From Nitrospinales bacterium (lineage in GTDB: Bacteria > Nitrospinota_A > UBA7883 > JACRGQ01): a DNA stretch of 64,000 nt. A model generated the notes under the pieces. That model made no database searches and was not told the origin of the DNA. It was given only the letters and a program-made list of their open reading frames with translations. Shown piece after piece: positions 1 to 12,003 of the stretch. The stretch covers positions 6,560 to 70,559 of the forward strand of contig JAHFEK010000005.1 in assembly GCA_023248495.1 (NCBI GenBank), written 5' to 3'. Both the position numbers and the translations under genes were made by a program. The first letter of the stretch is position 1; every line of letters begins with the position of its first letter.

Positions 1-183
1 GGTCAAGCGCCCAAGGCGCGCGCGGCCATTTTTCCCAAGGGCCACTTACCCGGCTGGATAGCTTAGTCCTCCACCCCCACACTGCCAAAACCAACACGAA
101 ACACCGCGCCCCGTCCAGTGGGGATTGCCACGGCAGATTGAATTACCAATGCCGCCGTTCCGTGCGCGCTGACCGGTTTTTTT

Positions 184-273
184 TGGCGGAGAGGGGGAGA
201 TTTGAACTCCCGGTACAGTTTCCCGTACAACGGTTTTCGAGACCGTCGCCTTCAGCCGCTCGGCCACCTCTCC
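184..273 (-). tRNA. tRNA-Ser (anticodon CGA), 90 nt, long variable arm
   Basis: Hand fold of the reverse complement: GGAGAGG acceptor, D-arm, anticodon loop CU-CGA-AA, long variable arm, T-arm GGGAGTTCAAATCTCCC, 3' GCCA. Overlaps the spurious ORF 46..267. Confidence 0.8.
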
Positions 274-283
274 ACTAAAAAAA

Positions 284-361
284 TGGTGCGCCCGAGAGGA
301 TTTGAACCTCTGACTTTCAGAACCGCAATCTGACGTTCTATCCGGGCTGAACTACGGGCGC
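284..361 (-). tRNA. tRNA-Arg-like (hand-folded anticodon GCG), 78 nt
   Basis: Reverse complement GCGCCCGTAGTTCAGCCCGGATAGAACG-TCAGA-TTGCGGT-TCTGA-AAGTC-AGAGGTTCAAATCCTCT-CGGGCGCACCA. Acceptor and T-arm are canonical and Arg-like. The anticodon assignment needs tRNAscan confirmation. Confidence 0.7.
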
Positions 362-461
362 ATAATGACCGGCTGCATTTCCGGAAGCGGTAATGATACA
401 TAAAACCGCCCTAAAGGGCAAATAATTCCGCATATAAAAAGGTTCCCGTTCGTATTAACAT

Positions 462-2147
462 ATGAAAATGAAATGTTTACCGGCAAAACCCGTATTCAAA
501 ATCCACCCCGGCAGGTGCGCGAACACTGCGCGAAAGGCATTAATTACCGTTGCGGTTTCACTGTTGCTCCTTGCCTGCGGCCAATCAGGCGGTTCATCGG
601 GAAATGGTACCGGGACGGGGACGGGAACTAACGCGGGAACGGGAACAGGAGGGGGATCATGTTATGCCGCGCCCTCGCACCAAGCGTCCAGCGATGGAAC
701 CACCGTTCTTTCAGGAACCGTTTATTACGAAGATCGCACCTATGATGCCACCGGCTTCACGGGCGTCGCCTGCCTGCCCGTGCGCAACGCCACCGTCGAT
801 CTGATGCGCAACTCCGTTGTGGCGCTTACGACCACCACCGACGCGGCCGGCGCGTATAGTTTCGCCATTCCCGCGGCGGGAACCTATTACGTCCGGACGC
901 TCGCCCAAAGCGGCACGGTCTATAACGCCGTGGTGAAAGACAATCGGGACAACTCCACCTACGCCGTCAAATCGATCAGTCTCGATATTGCGGCCAAAGA
1001 CGCGTGGACTGTCACTCTCTCCGCCGGAATGACCGGAGCCGGTCCGGCCTTTAATATTTACGACAACATCCTCAAGGCTCAGTCGGTTCTTCAAAAATAT
1101 GCCCCCAGCGCAACTCTGCCGGCCTTGACCGCTTACTGGTACGACGGCAAGACGACGGGTACCTATTATTCCAATGGAGCCGCGGGGCATACGCTGGATA
1201 TTCTCGGATCCCCCACCGATTCGGATGCCTATGACGACAGCGTAATCCTGCATGAGACGGGGCATTACGCCGCCGCGGTTTTCTCAAAAGACTCGTCTGG
1301 CGGCGGCGCGCACAGCCTGACGGGACATTACGACCTTCGCCTTACATGGTCCGAGGGATGGGCCAATTTCTTTTCAAGCCTGGTGAAAGCGGAGAAAGCG
1401 GAACCGAAGCCGTACGTGTACGTGGACACCAACGGCGGCACCGGCACCGGCAGCGCCACCCTCAACTTCACCTTTGAAATCGATACCCCCTCCTATGCCT
1501 CCCGCGCCACCGGCGCGGATAACGAGGTGGCGGTGGCGAACGTGCTTTGGACCATCTACACCGCCGGGGCCACGCCAAGGTTGGGGCTTGGTTTTGCCGA
1601 TATCTGGACCAATGTTACGGTTGGGCTTAAGACCGATACCTACGTAACCTTTGAAGGGTTTTACGATCATTGGGTCGCCACCGCGGGCCATCCCGCCGGG
1701 CAGCTCGATCCGTTGCTGACGGCCCGAAGCATCAAATATGCGGCCGATGCCTATGAGACGGACAGCAGCGCCGCCACCGCGCGCGCCATCGTTGCGGGCA
1801 CATCGGAAACTCATACGTTTTTCGGCGCGGGCGATACCGACTGGTTTAAAATCGCGGTAACCGGCGGCACGGCATACACGTTCGCCACCGGCGCGTTGGG
1901 AGACGGCTGCGATACGCTGATGACGCTTTATAATGCCGACGGAACAACGCAACTTGCCCAAAATGATGACGAGATCAGCGGCAAAGGGTCATCGAAAATC
2001 TCATGGACCGCGGACGCCACGAAAACGGTCTATCTGAAATTGGAACCGTACCGGCCGCTTATCAGCACCGACCTTGCGTATAGCACCTCGACATCATGGC
2101 CGCCGCAAATAGTGAAATACGGTTCCTACACGCTCACCGTTCAATGA
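462..2147 (+). CDS. secreted zinc metalloprotease lipoprotein (HExxH) with Gly/Thr-rich linker, carboxypeptidase-regulatory-like domain and C-terminal pre-peptidase (PPC)-like domain
   Basis: Signal peptide plus lipobox (LLLACGQ) followed by a GTGTGT linker. HETGH zinc-binding motif (VILHETGHYAA). C-terminal GDTDWFKIAVTGGTAYTF resembles the PPC domain. Long ORF with good coding look. Confidence 0.7.
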   Translation: MKMKCLPAKPVFKIHPGRCANTARKALITVAVSLLLLACGQSGGSSGNGTGTGTGTNAGTGTGGGSCYAAPSHQASSDGTTVLSGTVYYEDRTYDATGFTGVACLPVRNATVDLMRNSVVALTTTTDAAGAYSFAIPAAGTYYVRTLAQSGTVYNAVVKDNRDNSTYAVKSISLDIAAKDAWTVTLSAGMTGAGPAFNIYDNILKAQSVLQKYAPSATLPALTAYWYDGKTTGTYYSNGAAGHTLDILGSPTDSDAYDDSVILHETGHYAAAVFSKDSSGGGAHSLTGHYDLRLTWSEGWANFFSSLVKAEKAEPKPYVYVDTNGGTGTGSATLNFTFEIDTPSYASRATGADNEVAVANVLWTIYTAGATPRLGLGFADIWTNVTVGLKTDTYVTFEGFYDHWVATAGHPAGQLDPLLTARSIKYAADAYETDSSAATARAIVAGTSETHTFFGAGDTDWFKIAVTGGTAYTFATGALGDGCDTLMTLYNADGTTQLAQNDDEISGKGSSKISWTADATKTVYLKLEPYRPLISTDLAYSTSTSWPPQIVKYGSYTLTVQ

Positions 2148-2450
2148 TCAGTTGAATCGGCCGCCGAAACCGCCCCCAGGATAGCTGAAGCCGCCGCCTG
2201 CCGCGCCGGCGCCCATCCGGCTGGCGATGAGCATCAACAACATCGGCACCGCCACCAAAACCAGCCGCATCAGAAAAATAAGGGCAAGACCGGCGGCGAG
2301 ACAGAGGGTGGAGGTTCCCAGCACCAGAACCTGAAACAGCAGGCCATATTGCGGCGCGGCCAGCAATGTGACGTGCATATAAAATCCCAATGCGGCCAGC
2401 ATGGCCAGCGCGATGCCCGCCATGCGCATAAATCCCAGAATGACGCCCAT
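2148..2450 (-). CDS. small hydrophobic membrane protein with Gly-rich C-terminus (hypothetical)
   Basis: 100-aa ORF convergent on the metalloprotease stop. Two to three predicted TM helices. No recognisable family. Confidence 0.4.
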   Translation of the reverse strand: MGVILGFMRMAGIALAMLAALGFYMHVTLLAAPQYGLLFQVLVLGTSTLCLAAGLALIFLMRLVLVAVPMLLMLIASRMGAGAAGGGFSYPGGGFGGRFN

Positions 2451-2655
2451 GATGTTCTCCTTGCCTTTCCGGTTATTTTGCCCTCCTTGGGCATCTTCAG
2501 GGCCGGTAGCGCTCCCTTGAACGAGACTATCCTCCGGTTCATTCTACACCGCGCCGTCATCAAGAAAGGGATACCGGGAAAACCGGAGGCAGACCGGGGT
2601 TGACCTTTCCCCCGCTTTACGTTACTTTTGCGTTTGGCTCAAAAAGGAGACATCA

Positions 2656-3468
2656 ATGACCTATCCGTTATCGTTGCAAGGAAAGAACGCCCTCATCTTC
2701 GGCGTGGCCAACGAACGCAGCATCGCCTGGGGCATCGCGGAGGAGCTGCACCGCGCGGGAGCCAACCTCGCCTTCACCTACGCCGGCGAGATACTGGAAA
2801 AACGGGTTCGGCCGTTGGCGGAATCCGTCGGCTCGAAATTCGTCGAGCCATGCGACGTCACCAGCGATGAACAGATCGAAAAGGTTATGGCCGACTACAA
2901 GGAAAAATTCGGCCGCCTCGATATCCTCATTCACGCCATCGCCTTCGCCGACCGCGAAGATTTAAAAGGTCACTTCTACACGACCAGCCGCAAGGGACTC
3001 GCCATGGCGATGGACATCTCGGTCTACTCGCTGGTGGCGCTCACACGGGCGGCCCTGCCGCTAATGGAGGGAAGCGAAGGAAGCATTCTGACGCTCACCT
3101 ACCACGGCGCGGATAAAGTGGTGAAAAAGTACAATGTCATGGGAGTGGCGAAGGCGGCGCTGGAATGCTCCGTCCGGTACCTCGCCGACGACCTCGGCCC
3201 CAAGGGAATACGGGTGAACGCCATCTCCGCCGGGCCGATCAAAACACTGGCGGCCAGCGGTATCGGCGATTTCCGCGCCATGCTGAAACATCACGCGCGA
3301 ACCGCCCCGTTGCGCCGCAACGTGACGCAGGAAGAGGTGGGGAAAGCCGCGCTATACCTCTGCTCGCCGCTGGCATCGGGTGTCACCGGTGAAATTATGT
3401 ACGTGGACTGCGGCTACAACATCATGAGTGTCACCCCCGTTGAAGAAGAAGCAAAAACGGAGCAATAA
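2656..3468 (+). CDS. fabI: enoyl-[acyl-carrier-protein] reductase (NADH), FabI
   Basis: N-terminus [25 protein letters not shown] and SDR-type Y/K catalytic region are typical of FabI. 270 aa. RBS AAAGGAG upstream. Confidence 0.93.
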
Positions 3469-4174
3469 CATCAAAACGCTTATAAGCATCATCGATGCCG
3501 GGGAAGTAAAAGAGCTGCCGCGTATGCCGGATTTTCTCGATCTGAAAGACCCCCATAACGGATCGCTGGGTATGCCCGCGCTGGTCACCATAGAAGCGGT
3601 GCGCGCGGCGGCGGGAGACGCCGTCACCCTTTCCACCGCTATCGGCGATGCGGAATATGAACCTGAATTTTACGCCAACCGCGCGGTGGACGCGGCGCTG
3701 GCCGGGGCCGATATCGTGAAGGTCGGCCTTAAAAATGTCTCGGCGGAACAGGCGCCGTGGTTCCTTGCGGCCATCCGCCGCTCGCTGGACGCGCGCGCGC
3801 CCTACACCCGCATCGTCGCTGGCTTCTACGCCGACTTGATGGACGAAGCCTCGCTCAAGAAATTTCCCGCCGCCGCGCAAAACGCCGGCGTGTGGGGTTG
3901 CCTTATCGATACCTACGATAAAAGCGGCAATCGGCTGGGACACTATTGCGGACCGGAAACGCTGGCCGGATTCACCGCCGACTGCCGCGCGCGGGGCCTG
4001 AAAAGCGCGTTGGCCGGCGGCCTGGTGGAAGGCGACCTGGTCTGGCTGGACGAAGCGGATCCGGACATCGTCGGCTTCCGCTCCGCCGTGGCCCGGGGGG
4101 CGCGGGGCGCATCCGGTATCGACCCGAAAAAAGTTACCGACATCTTTTTCGCCGTCGATCAGCTTAACCGCTGA
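3428..4174 (+). CDS. MfnB-like / DUF556 (COG1891) class I aldolase-fold protein (4-HFC-P synthase homologue)
   Basis: Conserved blocks match archaeal MfnB: [19 protein letters not shown] (Schiff-base Lys context), [21 protein letters not shown] start overlaps the fabI 3' end by about 40 nt. Confidence 0.6.
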
Positions 4175-4303
4175 TTACTGATACATCTAACCAAATATTC
4201 AACCCTACTGAGCAAGGTTTTTTTTTCCGACTAGGGAAGGTGCAGCGATTTCCTCGTTAAAATAAGAATCCCGTCAAACCGATTTGCAGAGATTTAGAGC
4301 CAG

Positions 4304-5050
4304 CTACTCAAGAAGATTTTTTTCGCGGGTTGATTCGTAGAGGGAGGGAATATTTTTAGAGTGGATACGGAACTGGCTCCGCTTTTTGGCCTTCGGTTTT
4401 GTGGAGATATTTTCCAACTTGATGCCCGGATCATAGTAAACGCTGCCATTTGCGATGGCCTTAAGTAGGCGAAGAAAGTCGGTGCCCTTGCATAGCCGGA
4501 CAACATTTCCATAGCTGTATTTCAGTTCCGGTTTGTTCTCTTTCATTGAGGGAATATAAACGGCTTGAGCATGCTTCTTATTCCAGTGGGTTATTAATCC
4601 GCTGAAATCCCATAATGCCGCTACCTTGTCTTTAGAGGTTAGCAGCGCAATTCCACCAGAGGCATCTTTGATTTTTCCTTTCTCCGCATCATATCCCGAC
4701 AGGGTAAGCATGAGGCCGGTACTTTTCTGCCGCTCTCCAAATTTATGGATACCGCCAAAGTTCAACCGGTCAGGTTTGCCGTTTTTATCCGGGTACCCAT
4801 ATTTCCTGATGAACTCGACAACCCCTATTTCTTTATAAACGCCACCTCTTGGTTCTGGCGTCATGAGGGTAATCACACCTGATTTGAATTTATCAAAGGC
4901 GAAAACAGCATGTTGCTTAACTTCCCATCCAAGGTAATCCGGATCAGAATAGCCATTTGCTGTAATACCCAGTTCGGCCTCAAGGGTATAACCCCCACAG
5001 TTGGTTGTGTTGCAGGAGCCAAGCTTTCCACTTTTAGGCAGTTTTTGGAT
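4304..5050 (-). pseudogene. N-terminally truncated MutH/Sau3AI/BcnI-like PD-(D/E)XK restriction endonuclease fragment
   Basis: My translation of the open frame upstream of the called ORF gives ...GYSDPDYLGWEVKQHAV..., a PD-x(n)-E-x-K motif. It ends at an in-frame TAA (5051-5053) just after the HNH gene stop. The only usable start (GTG 4876) lies downstream of the catalytic motif. AT-rich. Confidence 0.55.
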
Positions 5051-5066
5051 TTAATCCAACCTTCCA

Positions 5067-5843
5067 TTATGGTCGAAAAATTGTCTCACGATGGTACCTT
5101 ATCGCAACTTTATCCGGTGAAAACTTCTTCGGCAAATTTACCATTATTCCCTCTATTTCTATTAATCCAATTCGATGGAGGGGTTGCGGTAATGCGGTTT
5201 TTAATTGGCTTGAAACCAAAATTTTAAAGGAATTATCGATAGCAATGTAACCTCGATCAAATGCACGGTCATGTAGTGCACAAAGAGAAATTCCATTTGT
5301 TGGGTCTGCCCTTCGATCGACCTTTTGACTCCAAGGGATAATATGACTTGCTATCAATAGCTCTCTGATTGGAAGCTGACAGAGAGCGCACTGTGAGCCA
5401 TAAGAAGCGAGAACAGTTTCTCTAAAAAAACTTTGAACTAATCGAACCTTTACTGAACGAACTTCCTCCGTTCTTAATGACAAACTATCTAAATTTACGT
5501 CTGGTAGCGATTTCTGGTCTGATTCCTTTCCAGTTATTGCTAAAAAGGCTTTCTGGCTTTCAAATGCAAGCCTACTCCAATCGGAATTGAATTCATCCCA
5601 TATTTTAAGGTCTTCTTTGCTCGCGTTGGCAAGTCCTTTAATGTTTCGTGCTTTTTGGACAGGATCCAAACTGGCAAAATTTACCAACTTCATTGCAATT
5701 GAGCTGGGTGTTCGGCCAAGTTTTAAAGCCAAAAATTTAATATCCGGATTTGCTTTGTGAAGACGACCAAAAGGCGTTCGACAGTAAAGATTGAATGCCA
5801 CGATTAATTCATCGTGGCTCCATCTTATTCTTTCATTCGTCAT
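5067..5843 (-). CDS. HNH-family endonuclease with uncharacterised N-terminal domain (restriction-type nuclease)
   Basis: C-terminal CALCQL...ASHIIPWS...NGISLCALHDRAFDRGYI matches the HNH (Cys/His..N..H) motif. Intact 258-aa ORF in the AT-rich island. Confidence 0.65.
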   Translation of the reverse strand: MTNERIRWSHDELIVAFNLYCRTPFGRLHKANPDIKFLALKLGRTPSSIAMKLVNFASLDPVQKARNIKGLANASKEDLKIWDEFNSDWSRLAFESQKAFLAITGKESDQKSLPDVNLDSLSLRTEEVRSVKVRLVQSFFRETVLASYGSQCALCQLPIRELLIASHIIPWSQKVDRRADPTNGISLCALHDRAFDRGYIAIDNSFKILVSSQLKTALPQPLHRIGLIEIEGIMVNLPKKFSPDKVAIRYHRETIFRP

Positions 5844-5899
5844 TGGTTTTGAAAAACTCTCGAGATGATTTGATGACCAAAGTCCAACACTCCAAATAG

Positions 5900-6642
5900 C
5901 TATCGGAGAACTACTAATCCATCAGCTTCAACTTTTTTTGCCCATGAGTTATTCCTCATAAAAACGGTTCCATAAACCCTAAGTACCCCTGAAATATGGA
6001 CGTTAATTAATATGGCGGTACAAGAAATCCCAACATCCCCAGCAAGGTTTTCGTCCATTAGCAAAAAGGTTGTTTCCTCAGCACAGTCATAGTAAATATC
6101 ACTTGCATCTTCAATAGTTTTAAAATCTTTAATAAACCGTCTAAAAATCAATTTGCCCTTCCAAATATTTTTTATTGCGCTTTTTAGATTATCGAGAACG
6201 GCTGGCAGGGAAAACCGGCCAACAGCACATCATGGTCAGGAATAAGCTGAATAGGCACTTTTGTTATATCGCCCACAATGGGATGATCATCATTAAAGTT
6301 TGCCCGGTAAGTTTCATTTGCCCGCTCATCCCATTCGCTGGTAAAGAGGCAATCCCCGCCTTGGGACTCGAAACCCAACCGAAAACCACCTATCCCGGCA
6401 AAAAGGTCTATAAAGGTGAAATCTCCTTGCGGCTTAAAAGCGGATAAATTAAGCGGCAAAAGAAGCTGTTGAAGCAACCGCCGGGCATAAGGCGGGGGAA
6501 TACATTCCCCAATTTCCCACCGCTGGATGGTTCTTGCATCCACCCCAAAATAATTAGCGACCTCTTTCTGTGAATAGATGGCATTCACTTCCAAGAGAAG
6601 ATTACCAAAAGAAACTCTCTTATTCATCTTCATCGCCCCCAC
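5900..6642 (-). pseudogene. DNA (cytosine-5)-methyltransferase with N-terminal HTH (M.SsoII-like architecture), disrupted by stop and frameshift
   Basis: ORF 6184..6642 has an XRE-like HTH, then motif I FIDLFAGIGGFRLGFE and motif IV GFPCQPFS, and stops. The downstream frame (5900..6151, TTG start) continues with an ENV-like block (LLMDENLAG). My frame walking finds two stops and a +1 shift between the pieces. Confidence 0.65.
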
Positions 6643-6774
6643 AATCCAGGAATATATACGGACAATATGGCAGAAATAGCTCCCTTATTCAACGACCAAG
6701 ATGACTGACTTTCAATGGCCCTTTCAAAGATGGACTTATTCCTTTCAGCCATTTACATATTGCTTACCTACCGA

Positions 6775-8646
6775 TTACTTCGCCCAGCGGTTGGAGCGGA
6801 GGAGGCTGAAGGTGATCTGGTTCTCGGCCAATAATTCCTTTTCCAGTCCGTCGAAATAGCCTTGTGGGGCTGCCCCCTCAAAGTAGCCGGTTTCCAGCCG
6901 GTCGCTCAGTGAATGCGTCAAGTAGCCTTTGTCGGTGATAATGCCGACAACCTCCCCCTCGCTGCAGAAGGCGCGTTGCCGCGTTTTGCGGAAGAGCGAA
7001 TCTCCCATCGCCGAAAAAGAATCGTCGAAACCGAGCAGATCGATGATGGTCGGCAACATGTCGAGCTGGCTGCCGACGGTATCCACCGCCTTCGGCTCCT
7101 TGAAGATGCCCGGCGCGTAAATAACCAGCGGCGTGTGAAACTTTTCACGGTATCCCCCGCTCCCGTTGCCGTAGTGCACCTGCGCGTGATCGGCGGTAAA
7201 AATGAAAATGGTTTTGGCGAACCACGGCTCTTTCTCCGCCGCCTTCATAAATTCGCCGATACTCCAATCGGAGTAATACAGGGTGTTTAAAAAGCCGTCT
7301 TCGCTTGAGGTGTCGGCGGGTTTTATTTCCCACTGTTTGCCCAGCGGCGGATAAGGGGTGTGCGTGGTGCCGGTGAAGAGATACGCGATGAACGGCCTTT
7401 TCGCCTTGTCGATCCGCGCTTTTAAAAACAGCAGTGTTTCGTAATCCCAGCCGAATACGCTGGCGCTATAGTCGGGGTAGTTCAAGAGCCTGGGGTAATC
7501 CTCCATGCCGTAGTAATCGGCGAATCCGGTGGCGCCCGCTATGGCATTGACCATGAACGAACGGCGGCGGGATGCTTGCAGGAAAATGGTCTCATAACCG
7601 TGGCGGCCGGCGATGGCGCCGAGCTTGGAAATGTTGGAGACCTCCAGCCCAAAGCCGAGCGCCGGGATGCCGTTCACCGGGGCGACGCCGGTGATGGTTG
7701 CCTGTATGCCAGTGATGCTGCGTTGGCCGGCAGCGTAAAAATTGGCGAACTTCAACCCGCGCGCCGCAAGCCGATCGAAGTTGGGCGTGACCCCATAGCC
7801 GTTATGGCCGAAGGAATCGACATATTTCACCCCCCAGCTTTCCATCAGGATAAAGACGATGTTGTAACCGGTGGACGTGGCGGCGTAGTTTTTTTGCATC
7901 GGGTAATCGCCCTCGGGCATGTTGAGCGCCGCAGCCGCCACTTTCAGCGGCATGAGCCGCAGATTGGCGGAATCGGCGTGGAGGGCGGAATGGTAAGCGG
8001 TGAACGCGCCATTGAGCATGAGGTTTCCCATGGCCGTATTGCCGCGCGAAAAGGCATCGATGGTGCCAAACGGTTTATCGGTTACGCTGCCGCGGATGCC
8101 GAGGAACAGGAAAATGACCAACAACAAAAAATTGAGCGCCGCGCTTTTGGGTAGCGTTTCGGGCTGACGGATTATTTTTTTCCAGAGCGCCCCCAGCGCC
8201 GCCGCGAAAAAGATAAATAAAACCAACTGCGGCAGGTAGACGCCGAATGCCATGTCGAACAGGTAGTGGACGTCGTTGCCCAGCATCAGCAGTTCGGTGG
8301 CCGTGTGGCGATGCACCTCGCCGAAGAAAGCGGTATCCCCCGCCAGCAACAGCGCCCCGGCCAGCAGAATGGCATACGCCGTCCATCCCCACGCCGTTGT
8401 CCAACGTCCGCCACGAAAAAACGCGCCCGGCAGATTCATCATCACGAACGGAAGGGAAAGAAAAGTGAGGGAGATGGAAAGATCAAACCGGACGCCAGCG
8501 GCAAAGCCGAAAAGTGTTTGCGCCGCTGACAGCTCGGCAAAATAGGGGCGGTGGACCAGAAACAGCCCAAGCCGTGAAAGCGAAAATACCGCTAGCGCGG
8601 CTCCAATGAAAAGACCCGTTTTTTGCATCCGGCTCATGTCAGGCAC
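6775..8646 (-). CDS. LTA-synthase/phosphoglycerol-transferase family membrane sulfatase-like protein (LtaS/MdoB/OpgB-like)
   Basis: Five N-terminal TM helices plus a C-terminal alkaline-phosphatase/sulfatase fold (FILMESWG, TPNFDRL, GQRSITG). 623 aa. Confidence 0.75.
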   Translation of the reverse strand: MPDMSRMQKTGLFIGAALAVFSLSRLGLFLVHRPYFAELSAAQTLFGFAAGVRFDLSISLTFLSLPFVMMNLPGAFFRGGRWTTAWGWTAYAILLAGALLLAGDTAFFGEVHRHTATELLMLGNDVHYLFDMAFGVYLPQLVLFIFFAAALGALWKKIIRQPETLPKSAALNFLLLVIFLFLGIRGSVTDKPFGTIDAFSRGNTAMGNLMLNGAFTAYHSALHADSANLRLMPLKVAAAALNMPEGDYPMQKNYAATSTGYNIVFILMESWGVKYVDSFGHNGYGVTPNFDRLAARGLKFANFYAAGQRSITGIQATITGVAPVNGIPALGFGLEVSNISKLGAIAGRHGYETIFLQASRRRSFMVNAIAGATGFADYYGMEDYPRLLNYPDYSASVFGWDYETLLFLKARIDKAKRPFIAYLFTGTTHTPYPPLGKQWEIKPADTSSEDGFLNTLYYSDWSIGEFMKAAEKEPWFAKTIFIFTADHAQVHYGNGSGGYREKFHTPLVIYAPGIFKEPKAVDTVGSQLDMLPTIIDLLGFDDSFSAMGDSLFRKTRQRAFCSEGEVVGIITDKGYLTHSLSDRLETGYFEGAAPQGYFDGLEKELLAENQITFSLLRSNRWAK

Positions 8647-9544
8647 AGACCTTTATGCCGCCAGCGCGGGTGACGGTGAACGAGCGCACCGTGGCGAAGC
8701 GGGCCGAGTAGTCCTCGCCATCTACCTGCAACGGAACCGCATCGATAAAGGCAAGGGTGAGCGGCGGTTCATGTGTCGCCGCCAAAGGGGCGAGGGCGGG
8801 AATGAAGCGGCTGGCCGCCATTCGCAGGAATGCCCCGTTGCCGGGCAGCTTCATCAGCTCTATTGCGCCATCATCCGGCTTTCCCCCGGCGCCAAAGCGC
8901 GAGCCCCCTCCATACCACGCGAGGTTGCCGATAATCACCGAAAGCGGCGTACCGTCCGCCATCGGCGCGCGTTTGGCGTGGAATAATAAAGCCCACAGGC
9001 CGACCAGGCCGAACAGCATTTTCTTTGCGAAGGCAAAACCGAAAAATCCGGTTTGTTCCAAATATTTGAGGGCCGATTGATAGAGCGAGAGCACCCAGCC
9101 GTCAAAGCCGAAGCTGACGTAATTGGTAAACAACAGCTCGCCATTGAGCGCCCACACATCCACCATCCCGAATGATGGCGCGACGGCGATTTTTTGCAAG
9201 TGGGTAATCACGCTTTTCTGGCGCGGCCCCAATTGCCGCGCAAAATCGTTGCCGGTGCCAAGCGGGAAAACCGCCAGCGCCGTCTCCGGCGCGTGGCGCA
9301 CAATCAGGTCGGCCATCTGATGCACCGTGCCGTCGCCCCCGCAGACCAGCGCGATATCGCACCCCTTGAGCGCCTCTATAACGGCGGGGATGGCGGCGGG
9401 GGAAGCGGGTGTGGCGCATATCGCCGTTACGCGGTTTTTCAGCAACGGATCGCGCGCGCGCGCGTCCGTCAGCATCCGCTGTATACGCGACCCTTTGCCG
9501 TGGCCCGATTTGGGATTGATAAAAATGCCTATCCGATTTTCCAC
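8639..9544 (-). CDS. soluble diacylglycerol/lipid kinase, DAGK_cat family (DgkB/YegS-like)
   Basis: IFINPKSGHGKG...CGGDGT...GTGNDFAR motifs. 8-nt overlap with the downstream LtaS-like gene. Confidence 0.75.
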   Translation of the reverse strand: MENRIGIFINPKSGHGKGSRIQRMLTDARARDPLLKNRVTAICATPASPAAIPAVIEALKGCDIALVCGGDGTVHQMADLIVRHAPETALAVFPLGTGNDFARQLGPRQKSVITHLQKIAVAPSFGMVDVWALNGELLFTNYVSFGFDGWVLSLYQSALKYLEQTGFFGFAFAKKMLFGLVGLWALLFHAKRAPMADGTPLSVIIGNLAWYGGGSRFGAGGKPDDGAIELMKLPGNGAFLRMAASRFIPALAPLAATHEPPLTLAFIDAVPLQVDGEDYSARFATVRSFTVTRAGGIKVCA

Positions 9545-9630
9545 GCTTTAAACTTTAACGCGAATTTGAAAGTTTCGGCAGCAATTTGTTACCTGCGGTG
9601 CCGGGGGGAAAATGATGGATTTGGGCCCGG

Positions 9631-10329
9631 ATGGCGTGTAGAGTACCGGGGAATATGATGCCGAATCCCAGCGATATTTACACCAAACCGCGCCTTGAGA
9701 TGGTGGAACAACAGTTGGTGCGCCGCGGCATCCGCGATGAACGGGTGCTTGCCGCGATGCGGCGGATACCGCGCCATGCCTTCGTTGACGAAGCGCTCTG
9801 TTTTAAGGCGTACGAAGATTACCCCCTGCCCATAGGCGAGAAGCAAACGATCAGCCAGCCGTTCATGGTCGCGGTTATGACCGAAATGCTGGAACTCAAA
9901 GGGAACGAAAAAATATTGGAGATCGGTACCGGGTGCGGCTATCAGACCGCCGTTTTGAGTTTGGTGGCGGCGCAGGTATACTCGATTGAACGGATTGGGC
10001 CGCTGCTGTTCAAAGCGCGGAAAACGCTTGAAGCACTCGGTATCCACAACGTTGCACTCACCGTCGGCGACGGCACCTTGGGGTGGAAGGACTTTGCCCC
10101 GTACGATGCAATTTTGGTCGCGGCGGGGGGGCCGGAGGTTCCGAAACCGTTGTTGGAACAGCTTGCTATCGGGGGACGGATAATCATCCCCATCGGCGGC
10201 GAAACGGGGCAGGTGCTTAAAAGGGTTATGCGGACGCCGTACGGTTTCGAGGAAACGGCCAGCACCCCCTGCACCTTCGTGAAACTGGTTGGACAATACG
10301 GCTGGCAGGAAAATGGGAACATAGGATGA
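9631..10329 (+). CDS. pcm: protein-L-isoaspartate O-methyltransferase
   Basis: TISQPFMVAVMTE...ILEIGTGCGYQTAVL motifs. 232 aa. Confidence 0.92.
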   Translation: MACRVPGNMMPNPSDIYTKPRLEMVEQQLVRRGIRDERVLAAMRRIPRHAFVDEALCFKAYEDYPLPIGEKQTISQPFMVAVMTEMLELKGNEKILEIGTGCGYQTAVLSLVAAQVYSIERIGPLLFKARKTLEALGIHNVALTVGDGTLGWKDFAPYDAILVAAGGPEVPKPLLEQLAIGGRIIIPIGGETGQVLKRVMRTPYGFEETASTPCTFVKLVGQYGWQENGNIG

Positions 10330-11369
10330 GCAACGAAAAAATAACCTACAAGGATGCCGGGGTCGACATAGACGCGGGCACGGAATCGCTGCGGCTTATC
10401 AAACGGCATGTTGAATCGACGGTGAATAAAAATGTCCTCTGGGGGCTGGGCGCTTTCGGCGGAATGTTCGATCTCACCGACATTGTGAAAGAGTACAAAA
10501 GGCCGGTGCTGGTGCAAAGCATCGATGGCGTCGGCACCAAGCTGATGGTGGCAAGCATGGCGGCGGACCATAGCACCATCGGCATGGACATCGTGAACCA
10601 CGGCTGCAACGACGTGCTCTGCCAGGGGGCAAAGCCGCTGACGTTTCTCGACTACGTGGCGATGAACCGGTTGCTTCCCGCGCAGATGGAAGAGATATTG
10701 CGCGGCATGGCCGCCGCCTGCCGCGATGCGGGGGTGGTGATTTTAGGAGGCGAAACCGCCGAACTCCCCGGCATGTATCAGGCGAAAGAATACGACGTGG
10801 CCGGTATCGTCACCGGCGTGGTGGAGCGCGACGAGATAGTGAACGGCTCCACGCTGGCCGCCGGGCAGGTGCTGATCGGCCTCGCCAGCAACGGGTTACA
10901 CACCAACGGCTACACGCTGGCGCGAAAGGTCTTTTTCGACATGGCAAAACTGGGCATACACGACACGCCAAAAGGGTTTGACCGGAGCGTTAAAGAGCTG
11001 CTCCTCGCGCCACACGTGAACTACGCCAACGCTGTTTTGGCCTTTTTGAAAAAAACAAAAGTTCACGCCATCGCGCACATCACCGGCGGCGGTTTTATAG
11101 ACAACATCATCCGCGTGGTGCCGGAAGGCAATCGGCTGACCGTGAAACGCGGCACTTGGCCGGTGTTGCCGGTATTCGATTTCATTCAAAAAACCGCGGG
11201 CGTGGCGCAGGAAGAAATGGAGCGCGCCTTCAACATGGGTATCGGCCTGGTGCTGGCGGTGGACAAAGCCGACGAAAAGACGGCGCTGGATTTCTTCAAT
11301 GCCAACGGTCACGCGGCATATTGTATCGGCCATGTTTCCAACGGCCCGCGCGGCGTAAGCGTTCAGTAA
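10326..11369 (+). CDS. purM: phosphoribosylformylglycinamidine cyclo-ligase (AIR synthase)
   Basis: AIR-synthase N/C domains (DGVGTKL, DYVAMNRL, ITGGG). 4-nt overlap with pcm. Confidence 0.92.
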   Translation: MSNEKITYKDAGVDIDAGTESLRLIKRHVESTVNKNVLWGLGAFGGMFDLTDIVKEYKRPVLVQSIDGVGTKLMVASMAADHSTIGMDIVNHGCNDVLCQGAKPLTFLDYVAMNRLLPAQMEEILRGMAAACRDAGVVILGGETAELPGMYQAKEYDVAGIVTGVVERDEIVNGSTLAAGQVLIGLASNGLHTNGYTLARKVFFDMAKLGIHDTPKGFDRSVKELLLAPHVNYANAVLAFLKKTKVHAIAHITGGGFIDNIIRVVPEGNRLTVKRGTWPVLPVFDFIQKTAGVAQEEMERAFNMGIGLVLAVDKADEKTALDFFNANGHAAYCIGHVSNGPRGVSVQ

Positions 11370-11390
11370 GGCGCCGCTATCGGCAAAAAA

Positions 11391-11479
11391 TGGTGCCGGG
11401 AGCCGGAATCGAACCGGCACAGGCGTTTCCACCCGAGGGATTTTAAGTCCCTTGCGTCTACCAATTTCGCCATCCCGGC
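11391..11479 (-). tRNA. tRNA-Leu (anticodon TAA), 89 nt, long variable arm
   Basis: Reverse complement GCCGGGATGGCGAAATTGGTAGACGCA-AGGGA-CTTAAAA-TCCCT-long arm-GCCGGTTCGATTCCGGC-TCCCGGCACCA. Confidence 0.85.
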
Positions 11480-11524
11480 AATGGAGAACATCCAGAATTG
11501 TACACGGCGGGGAAGCTTTAGGTA

Positions 11525-11552
11525 AATAAAAAGGGGGCGCCATTTTTGGCGC
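11525..11552 (-). terminator. putative rho-independent terminator after the hemerythrin gene
   Basis: GCGCC-AUUUUU-GGCGC hairpin followed on the minus strand by CCCCUUUUUAUUU. Short stem, so only moderate support. Confidence 0.4.
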
Positions 11553-11592
11553 TTGCGGGCCAACAAGCAAGTTGAAACCTGTTGTACCCCGG

Positions 11593-12003
11593 CTATTTTG
11601 CCAAAATATGTTTTGCGATTTTCGAGTCCTGCAACTTAATGTGATTCAACAGCCAGTCCTTCAGGAACCACATAAGGCCCGCCTCGACCCCCGGCTCGCC
11701 ATCACGAAAGCGCTTCTGGAAATCGAGAGCTTCCGCCAACAAATCCTGGTGCAGCTTCCGGTGTGCTTCCAGTCCCGGATAGCCATGCCGTTCCTGTATG
11801 ATCTCCTCCTGGGCGAAGTGGGTACCGGTATATTCAAGAACCCCCCGCAATACTTTTTCGGTTTCCGCCGCGGTGCCAACTTCCATGGCGATATATAAAT
11901 CGTTAATCAGCGCCACCAGCCGCATATGCTGCTGGTCAACTTCCGGAATGCCTATTTCATAATCGTCTTTCCAGGTTATATAGGCCGTATCATCTATCGC
12001 CAT
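11593..12003 (-). CDS. hemerythrin-like O2/metal-binding protein (bacteriohemerythrin)
   Basis: WKDDYEIGIPEVDQQHMRL...H..E.H...H..L are hemerythrin His/Glu/Asp ligand blocks. The ATG directly abuts the upstream MCP stop (TAA|ATG). Confidence 0.85.
   Translation of the reverse strand: MAIDDTAYITWKDDYEIGIPEVDQQHMRLVALINDLYIAMEVGTAAETEKVLRGVLEYTGTHFAQEEIIQERHGYPGLEAHRKLHQDLLAEALDFQKRFRDGEPGVEAGLMWFLKDWLLNHIKLQDSKIAKHILAK

Follow-up and report, generated by a model that had tools for sequence, protein, structure and literature searches.

Positions 4175-6775 of a 64-kb stretch of Nitrospinales DNA (contig JAHFEK010000005.1 of assembly GCA_023248495.1, positions 6,560 to 70,559), hereinafter the window, form a low-GC (guanine plus cytosine) island that almost certainly consists of the two ends of a Dcm-type restriction-modification (R-M) operon whose centre was swapped for a cassette encoding an HNH nuclease in one block replacement. 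Relatives of this nuclease show the same pattern of replacement at their loci in many lineages. Taken as a whole, the evidence suggests, on balance, that the cassette replacement flipped the R-M locus to a methyl-directed antagonist. All coordinates given without a locus label are window positions; the loci and proteins used for comparison are denoted by L and P numbers, respectively.

The intact counterpart of the disrupted operon is found in a 2.2-Mb contig of a Nitrospinae metagenome-assembled genome (MAG; locus L003) and encodes a C5-cytosine methylase fused to a helix-turn-helix (HTH) domain (419 amino acids, aa), a Vsr protein (156 aa) and a restriction endonuclease (P0001, 429 aa). The methylase matches the PRK10458 (Dcm) profile over positions 19-467 with 457 bits, below the equivalog cut-off of 710 bits; the Vsr protein reaches 143 bits, above its curated cut-off of 98. 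Two segments of the window match this operon, namely 6588-6190, corresponding to L003 8258-8656 with 81% nucleotide (nt) identity, and 5029-4303, corresponding to L003 10567-11291 with 77% identity, and there is no likeness between the window and L003 in the part that separates them. In that part, 1.9 kb of the intact operon (L003 8657-10566), comprising methylase motifs V-X, vsr and the N-terminal domain of the endonuclease, are represented in the window by 1.16 kb (5030-6189) that contain a small gene, denoted orf83, and the HNH gene. With one replacement, the motif V-X half of the methylase, vsr and the endonuclease N-terminal domain would all have been lost together.

The methylase remnant (M') is a 152-aa open reading frame (ORF) that ends with PCQPFSII and a stop codon, matches positions 1-76 of the 324 positions of the Pfam DNA_methylase family along with a weak HTH_3 match, and covers positions 20-184 of PRK10458. 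It is devoid of the catalytic half, the target-recognition domain (TRD) and motifs V-X, and so falls short of the motifs I-X and the TRD required of a Type II methylase. At the left junction, 64 of 71 nt (~90%) are identical to L003 right up to the break, which follows CCGTTCTCGATA, encoding PCQPFSI, just beyond motif IV; the sequence on the other side is unrelated. A relaxed tblastn search (E<=10) of the whole window detected no vsr and no further pieces of the methylase, Vsr or the endonuclease N-terminal domain. Given the sharp cut and the lack of any other pieces, the methylase gene was truncated rather than riddled with stop codons. In the approach to motif IV, there are only 2 differences in 50 nt between 6190-6239 and L003 8607-8656, compared with the remnant average of 81% identity, and synonymous sites are conserved in this segment as well.

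Upstream of the methylase start, a leader of ~55 nt (6682-6627) is also retained. In L004 and L005, the loci with the closest relatives of the HNH nuclease (74-76% identity), almost all of the methylase gene is gone and orf83 and the HNH gene come directly after the retained leader. The cassette probably uses the old methylase promoter; promoter and terminator scans gave results at chance level. The island has a single CCWGG site (CCTGG, 6646-6650 on the minus strand), and it is in this leader, immediately behind a TATATT box. At this site L003, L004 and L005 read CCTAG, the change expected from deamination of methylated bottom-strand CCAGG.

The other end of the operon (R') is a remnant of the endonuclease that matches PF15515 (MvaI_BcnI) with an E-value of 1.3e-28 and 101 bits (cut-off 25), positions 59-227 of the match being in the called ORF and the rest in the open frame upstream. 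R' corresponds to residues ~183-429 of P0001 (the endonuclease remnants overall, to ~176-429), with 81% aa identity and a ratio of nonsynonymous to synonymous substitution rates (dN/dS) of 0.05 versus L003, and it keeps the catalytic D...E-x-K, with DPDYLGWEVKQ aligned to EPDFLGWEVKQ of P0001. MvaI_BcnI is the only family detected in R', and no island protein matched a MutH/Sau3AI profile in a Pfam scan (E<=0.01); MvaI and BcnI share their fold with MutH. What is missing is an N-terminal domain of ~175 aa for which no Pfam family was found; the relatives are almost all ~430 aa long. At the right junction, the stop codon of the HNH gene (TAA, 5069-5067) overlaps an ATG (5067-5065) that opens MEGWIKSKN, the first nine codons of R', which match RKGWIKSKR of P0001, and tblastn aligns residues 177-204 of the L003 endonuclease at 5064-4981. 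Twenty-odd bases past the junction, a run of five A (5046-5042) is the site of a frameshift, seen in the DNA alignment with L003 as a single 1-nt gap after TCCAA and present in an independent assembly too. The lesions of R' are exactly two, the truncation and this one frameshift. R' thus has neither the start codon nor the uninterrupted frame of a functional endonuclease: it has no usable start, the first one in this frame being 58 codons downstream of where the frame opens. A 253-aa relative (P0073) was considered as a natural short form of the endonuclease and rejected, given that its locus, L089, is another decayed operon, in which a piece of the endonuclease N-terminus and a methylase motif-X remnant are located just upstream of the P0073 tail (L089 4258-5762). 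The short MvaI/BcnI-family proteins in the databases may often be such wrecks.

The cassette is in a quite different state. The HNH protein matches PF13391 (HNH_2; E 1.4e-13, 50.9 bits, cut-off 21) and contains the invariant residues C152, C155, H167, N183, C188 and H191. None of the residues that are invariant in sets of 27 and of 120 relatives has been lost, and dN/dS versus L004 and L005 is 0.07-0.14. The full-length PADLOC family model PDLC04132, named only 'HNH', is matched with an E-value of 2e-85, and the second-best PADLOC models, for the C-terminal half, are those of a 'Type II restriction enzyme'. The best solved relative of the catalytic domain is PDB 6yex (E 5e-16, query residues 109-216), which we take to be the EVE-HNH enzyme VcaM4I; 6ghs is a weak match (E 0.17). 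In the structural model the N-terminal domain is all-helical, with six helices and a predicted local distance difference test score (pLDDT) of 89; it yielded weak matches of the HTH/Myb/SANT type (E>0.4) and no EVE, SRA or PUA beta-barrel reader. The product of orf83 is 58-61% identical to the proteins encoded upstream of the HNH genes in L004 and L005, with dN/dS of 0.07-0.11, and has no above-threshold match in Pfam, PADLOC or PHROG. An HMMER scan of 1.84 billion representatives returned two further relatives of orf83, and a word-indexed search returned the query alone. One of these two, the only distant relative, is a 4430-aa protein (P0243) that contains ten repeats resembling orf83 residues 27-66 with 36% identity. 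Judging by these low dN/dS ratios, orf83 and the HNH gene are genuine, constrained genes under purifying selection.

The composition of the genes separates the cassette from the operon ends. The GC content of third codon positions (GC3) is 0.29 in orf83 and 0.31 in the HNH gene, 0.49 and 0.48 in M' and R', respectively, and 0.49-0.52 in the methylase, vsr and endonuclease genes of the intact L003 operon. The host genes fabI, mfnB, dgk and the LtaS-like gene have a GC3 of 0.73-0.76, and the island is compositionally foreign (0.29-0.49). The HNH gene is an intruder of different composition, foreign to the original R-M module. The features of the island are listed in Table 1.

Table 1. Positions of the features discussed in the text (window coordinates).
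Feature	Position	Strand	Description
Low-GC spacer, left edge of the island	4175..4303	.	GC 0.40; from the mfnB-like stop at 4174 to the R' stop codon
R', endonuclease remnant	4304..5050	-	catalytic part, at the C-terminus, of an MvaI/BcnI-family endonuclease with two domains; 248 codons and stop
A5 run with 1-nt deletion	5042..5046	-	puts R' in a different frame from the ATG at 5067-5065
Right junction, cassette/R'	5056..5067	-	localised to ~12 nt
HNH_2 nuclease gene	5067..5843	-	intact, 258 aa; N-terminal domain (residues ~4-105) and C-terminal HNH
orf83	5900..6151	-	small conserved ORF, 83 aa; travels with the HNH clade of the window
M', methylase remnant	6184..6642	-	HTH and just motifs I-IV of a C5-cytosine methylase; equivalent to residues 1-161 of the 419-aa homologue
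Left junction	6189..6190	-	similarity to the intact methylase gene stops abruptly after ...CCGTTCTCGATA
Methylase leader, probable promoter	6627..6682	-	conserved in L003, L004 and L005 (four-way alignment; blastn)
LtaS-like sulfatase gene	6775..8646	-	GC3 0.73, host-like; absent from L001 and L002

The HNH family is large, with more than 6000 hits of ~255 aa each. Contexts were examined for 80 metagenomic loci (48-61% identity), three closer relatives and two annotated records, which dereplication at 95% reduced to 68 loci, and neighbouring pieces were counted up to 2.5 kb from the HNH gene. Pieces of C5-methylase, Vsr or endonuclease genes are present in 44 of the 68 loci. Vsr is found in 29, and 19 have Vsr and no methylase at all. 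The vsr copies next to the cassette are mostly relics, either N-terminally truncated at the end that faces the cassette or mutated at conserved residues, so that a role for Vsr as a working partner of the cassette was rejected. A methylase is encoded in 21 loci, as a fragment in 18 and as a long gene in three; in the other 47 there is none within 2.5 kb. The endonucleases, detected in 11 loci, belong to the EcoRII family (nine) or the MvaI/BcnI family (two), and nine of the 11 are fragments. These architectures map onto the clades of the HNH family, with at least five to six clades adjoining truncated methylases, and the cassette lies in either orientation relative to the remnant.

Among the methylase remnants that retain motif I, the breakpoints show a striking clustering at or just past motif IV, without being identical, in at least five HNH clades. 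The remnants end after CGF (gonococcus), GFP (L039 and L063), GFPC (L052 and L061), GFPCQ (L015), PFS (L008) or PFSI (the window and L059); the one in L043 ends 17 residues later, after the look-alike GFKC, those in L034 and L036 end after motif V, the one in L006 ends at residue 369, and five others end earlier. This variety may stem in part from later deletions between short repeats, for example, GGTTTTCCTTGT and GGTTTTAAGTGT. No conserved ends or repeats of the cassette were found in pairwise blastn comparisons of the 80 loci, which were confounded by redundancy and contig ends.

Several other genes accompany the nuclease. Directly downstream of the HNH gene, 40 of the 68 loci encode a conserved acidic ORF of ~78 aa, denoted c1 (e.g., L008 2803-3033 and L024 5791-6033), which is sometimes duplicated or inverted, belongs to no Pfam, PADLOC or PHROG family and could be an immunity or regulatory partner of the nuclease. 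The clade of the window has orf83 upstream of the HNH gene in place of the downstream c1; a relationship between the two was considered, and no link was found. ORFs similar to IS200/Y1 transposases adjoin the cassette in L006 (5144-5575), L009 (6083-6571), L042, L057, L063, L064 and L069. One HNH clade (L043, L052, L059 and L061) is embedded in a five-gene array of a methylase stub, HNH, c1, an EcoRII-type endonuclease with N and C domains and Vsr, followed by a gene for a TdeIII-family endonuclease. The EcoRII-type gene appears nearly full length in L043 and L061 despite the truncated methylase.

The arrangement is also identifiable in the gonococcus. The gap between pheS and pheT of Neisseria gonorrhoeae (NZ_CP119142.1; L087 3953-5744) encodes Vsr, a 133-aa methylase stub (NgoAXIII) that stops inside motif IV, a 113-aa ORF (orf113) and a 249-aa HNH protein with 41% identity to that of the window. 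In meningococci, the same position is occupied by Vsr-M.NmeDI-R.NmeDI, and in gonococci, Vsr and a methylase stub of 112-133 aa, NgoAXIII, have been reported, the stub having been regarded as a possible remnant (Sanchez-Buso et al., bioRxiv 10.1101/630434; PMC7973814; PMC2095814). The published accounts of the NgoAXIII stub that were found neither mention the HNH gene nor tie it to the truncation. R.NmeDI is a different protein, of 351 aa.

The specificity of the lost system was approached through word counts in the host DNA outside the island (1-4174 and 6776-64000). CCWGG occurs there 72 times compared to 135 expected, an observed/expected ratio (O/E) of 0.53 (z score -5.4), and the O/E of CCSGG is 0.98. 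CCWGG and GGWCC (O/E 0.43, z ~-5.4) are the two most under-represented palindromic words; GATC, GGCC and CTAG are also low. Such avoidance agrees with a long history of restriction at CCWGG. The lost methylase appears to have been Dcm-like and was probably specific for CCWGG. Given the Dcm-like methylase, the Vsr protein in L003 and the avoidance of CCWGG, not CCSGG, a Sau3AI-type specificity is probably wrong.

As for the nuclease itself, a possible model is R.PcaRCII of Pectobacterium carotovorum, which combines a TRF1-like helical N-terminus with a VcaM4I/TagI-like HNH domain and has no methylase nearby. This enzyme restricts DNA in which CCNGG/CCWGG has been methylated by a homologue of Dcm (Birkholz et al. 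2022, PMC8989522). With slightly less than even likelihood, the window HNH could be a solitary, methylase-independent nuclease of this type that cuts C5-methylated DNA, probably at CCWGG. It has no complete methylase as a companion, the one in the window being truncated, and its HNH domain is of the VcaM4I/TagI kind. In the mechanism that we propose, one event would have disabled the methylase and the endonuclease together, avoiding the killing that follows the loss of the methylase alone; the 1-nt deletion in the A run, at that time or earlier, would have silenced the leftover catalytic domain, otherwise perhaps an unregulated nuclease. The cassette genes would be transcribed from the old methylase leader and the HNH protein would cut the C5-methyl mark that the lost methylase used to write, so that a locus that methylated self DNA and cut unmethylated DNA would have become one that cuts methylated DNA.

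Several observations weigh against the replacement in one step or against the methyl-directed role. The dN/dS of R' between the window and L004 is 0.08 at a dS of ~1, and the dS of the adjacent HNH gene is ~2.3, which suggests that the history of the locus is more mosaic than a single simple event and that the remnants and the cassette had partly separate histories; one possibility is that the cassette spread by homologous recombination into related intact operons. In Pectobacterium, PcaRCI and PcaRCII coexist at separate loci, and promoter methylation solves the conflict between them (PMC8989522). A methylation-sensitive promoter like that of pcaIIR was considered for the island and rejected: L003, L004 and L005 have CCTAG at the leader site, and CCWGG is not enriched upstream of the HNH genes (13 of 64 loci versus a background of 0.31 per 156 nt), so that a switch of the pcaIIR type is not general. 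The likeness of the HNH protein to R.PcaRCII is drawn from a published verbal description. The N-terminal domain is not a known reader of modified bases, and HNH_2 includes ordinary Type II enzymes, for instance AlwI, BbrI and HphI. Long, apparently intact C5-methylases of another subfamily adjoin the HNH gene in L053, L058 and perhaps L055, which fits a Type II role there. Gonococci have many active C5-methylases and yet an intact HNH homologue, which makes a broad activity dependent on 5-methylcytosine unlikely. Finally, a methyl-directed nuclease would have had to be installed in a still-methylated chromosome. A wider generalization is less likely than not, namely that this family of solitary ~255-aa HNH nucleases, usually along with a ~78-aa ORF, recurrently replaces the catalytic half of Dcm-type methylases in methylase-Vsr-endonuclease operons of unrelated hosts (Nitrospinota, Neisseria and many uncultured lineages), flipping the locus to attack that methylation or the methylase gene, with the leftover operon ends possibly serving as homology arms for swapping antagonistic alleles.

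Two alternative explanations of the recurrent pattern have to be weighed. The HNH protein might be a homing-like selfish nuclease that cuts the DNA encoding motif IV (GFPCQPFS) of Dcm-type methylase genes, the cassette being copied or captured into the break whatever the methylation state. Such a target would account for the breakpoints of the methylase remnants, which in several HNH clades, and with either orientation of the cassette, are only a few codons away from motif IV; homing nucleases classically target conserved active-site codons, and the N-terminal domain resembles a sequence-reading HTH rather than a base-flipping reader. We consider this explanation unlikely all the same. Phages are nearly devoid of the family, with one full-length hit in 50,697 records; the contexts are chromosomal, with no intron or intein and no conserved cassette ends or repeats; and the far junction varies, lying in the endonuclease gene, in vsr or elsewhere. 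In addition, short-repeat deletions can explain some of the breakpoints, the independent events perhaps number only ~5-6, and hosts such as gonococci retain other C5-methylase genes with an intact motif IV.

Alternatively, the HNH protein could be an ordinary nuclease, either a Type II enzyme with a methylase elsewhere or one with a non-defence function, and the R-M debris next to it could reflect clustering in hotspots. The Type II members of HNH_2, the second-best PADLOC models, the long methylase genes abutting the nuclease in L053 and L058, and the variability of the gap that harbours the island (see below) all agree with this. It is nevertheless improbable, considering that the neighbours in those 44 of the 68 loci are specifically pieces of Dcm-type methylases, Vsr and CCWGG-type endonucleases, that the cassette lies inside an operon, between its two ends, with the methylase pieces stopping at motif IV, and that an intact methylase is lacking in the vicinity of most relatives for which 5-kb flanks were available. 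Replacement of the operon centre by a methyl-directed nuclease remains the preferred reading.

The gap in question lies between the mfnB-like gene, for a 4-HFC-P synthase, and the diacylglycerol kinase-like gene dgk. The island extends from the stop codon of the MfnB-like gene (4174) to that of the sulfatase/LtaS-like gene (6775), as the initial annotation had placed it, and these two genes are convergent around it. It is the lowest-GC 2.6 kb of the window: GC is 42.1% at 4175-6775, and 2.6-kb windows across the 64 kb have a mean of 57.0%, a standard deviation of 3.2% and a minimum of 42.5% at 4201. The low-GC island that had been described was hence real and exactly delimited; the ~63% given for the flanks was too high (58.9% at 1-4174 and 57.3% at 6776-12000). 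No integrase or transposase was found at the island, in agreement with that description, and there is likewise no tRNA target, no flanking direct or inverted repeat and no Rfam RNA; the tRNAs closest to it occupy 184-361 and 11391-11479. The island is missing from L001, a Nitrospinales MAG whose flanks share ~87% nt identity with those of the window, and from L002; in both of these loci, the closest relatives that were found, the mfnB-like gene is directly followed by the convergent dgk gene. Homology of the window with these two loci stops at 4171 and resumes at 8638, so the whole of 4172-8637 is extra, including the LtaS-like gene, which is compositionally native and yet part of the variable segment. 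The right border of the insertion is thus not at the LtaS-like gene, where it had been drawn; no remnants of this gene were found in L001 and L002. The gap contains a hicAB-like toxin-antitoxin pair in L001 (10742-11292) and nothing in L002 (685-691), and is a variable hotspot.

The initial annotation depicted a Sau3AI-type module of three genes, for the methylase, the HNH nuclease and a MutH/Sau3AI-like endonuclease, acquired together and decaying gene by gene, and this model can be considered very improbable. A single coding strand, one low-GC block and the lack of a mobility gene are in its favour; the intact L003 operon has Vsr rather than the HNH gene between the methylase and the endonuclease, the methylase is cut off, and the GC3 of the HNH gene and orf83 differs from that of M' and R', so the HNH gene was not a member of the module. 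Parts of the description hold. All island genes are indeed on the minus strand, with a fourth, orf83 (6151-5900), having been missed; the HNH_2 gene of 258 aa is intact, as proposed. The HTH-fused C5-methylase N-terminus was correctly recognized, but instead of stops and a frameshift after motif IV there is an end of similarity at 6190/6189. The endonuclease is a PD-(D/E)XK enzyme that has lost its start and N-terminus, but of the MvaI/BcnI family (PF15515) rather than of the MutH/Sau3AI kind. The foreign composition, the absence from L001 and L002 and the R-M remnants agree with a horizontally acquired island in mid-decay, but the decay amounts to a block replacement and one frameshift. Finally, it is scarcely credible that the lesions are assembly errors or that R' is made by ribosomal frameshifting in the A run as a short enzyme like BcnI and MvaI, which are single-domain proteins of ~240 aa: R' is clean apart from the lesion in the homopolymer, but run SRR14366756, assembled independently with a second assembler, gives a sequence with 100% identity over 3601 nt, a third assembly has identical gene calls, an active R' without a methylase would be lethal, and the short forms in the databases are decayed genes as well.

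Decayed R-M genes are commonplace, and a decaying defence island alone would be ordinary; here, the manner of death is visible and recurrent. The recurrent replacement of Dcm-type operons by an HNH cassette is apparently a variant of the known conflicts between methylases and methyl-directed nucleases. If the HNH protein is methyl-directed, these loci would represent a natural epigenetic conflict resolved by gene replacement rather than by silencing, which would account for numerous vsr orphans and methylase stubs in genomes; if the methylase gene is the target, it would be a new kind of anti-R-M homing element. The accounts of gonococcal NgoAXIII that were found record only a truncated methylase; the HNH family described here, in the excised core of Dcm-type operons, spans distant phyla. 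There is also a lesson for annotation in that 'short' MvaI/BcnI and C5-methylase proteins in the databases are often such wrecks.

Comparison with characterized systems brings out both likenesses and differences. The window HNH protein fits the published domain description of R.PcaRCII and occupies the former position of a Dcm-type methylase; the difference is that the cassette physically replaces the methylase catalytic half, vsr and a part of the endonuclease gene. Its catalytic domain is closest to the solved ones of VcaM4I (EVE-HNH; 6yex, E 5e-16) and TagI (SRA-HNH; 6ghs, E 0.17), but those enzymes read the modified base via a beta-barrel EVE or SRA domain, whereas the N-terminal domain of the window protein is all-helical and HTH-like. 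R' resembles MvaI and BcnI in its match to the PF15515 profile and the retained D...E-x-K, but its full-length relatives of ~430 aa have the extra 175-aa N-terminal domain and are paired with a C5-methylase and Vsr, and R' itself is truncated and frameshifted. The EcoRII-Dcm-Vsr systems, specific for CCWGG, resemble the original operon in that the L003 methylase aligns with the Dcm model over its whole length, including the N-terminal region, in the presence of Vsr in L003 and in the avoidance of CCWGG by the host, and sister HNH clades are located inside EcoRII-N/EcoRII-C operons; they differ in that the L003 methylase scores 457 rather than 710 bits and the endonuclease belongs to another fold family, the CCWGG specificity of the lost system being inferred. 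NgoAXIII and NmeDI are alternative alleles, and the gonococcal stub stops inside motif IV, that of the window just past it, a small ORF and the HNH gene coming next in both, whereas Vsr comes first in Neisseria, the methylase belongs to the RCCGGY/B subfamily and the small ORF is a different one.

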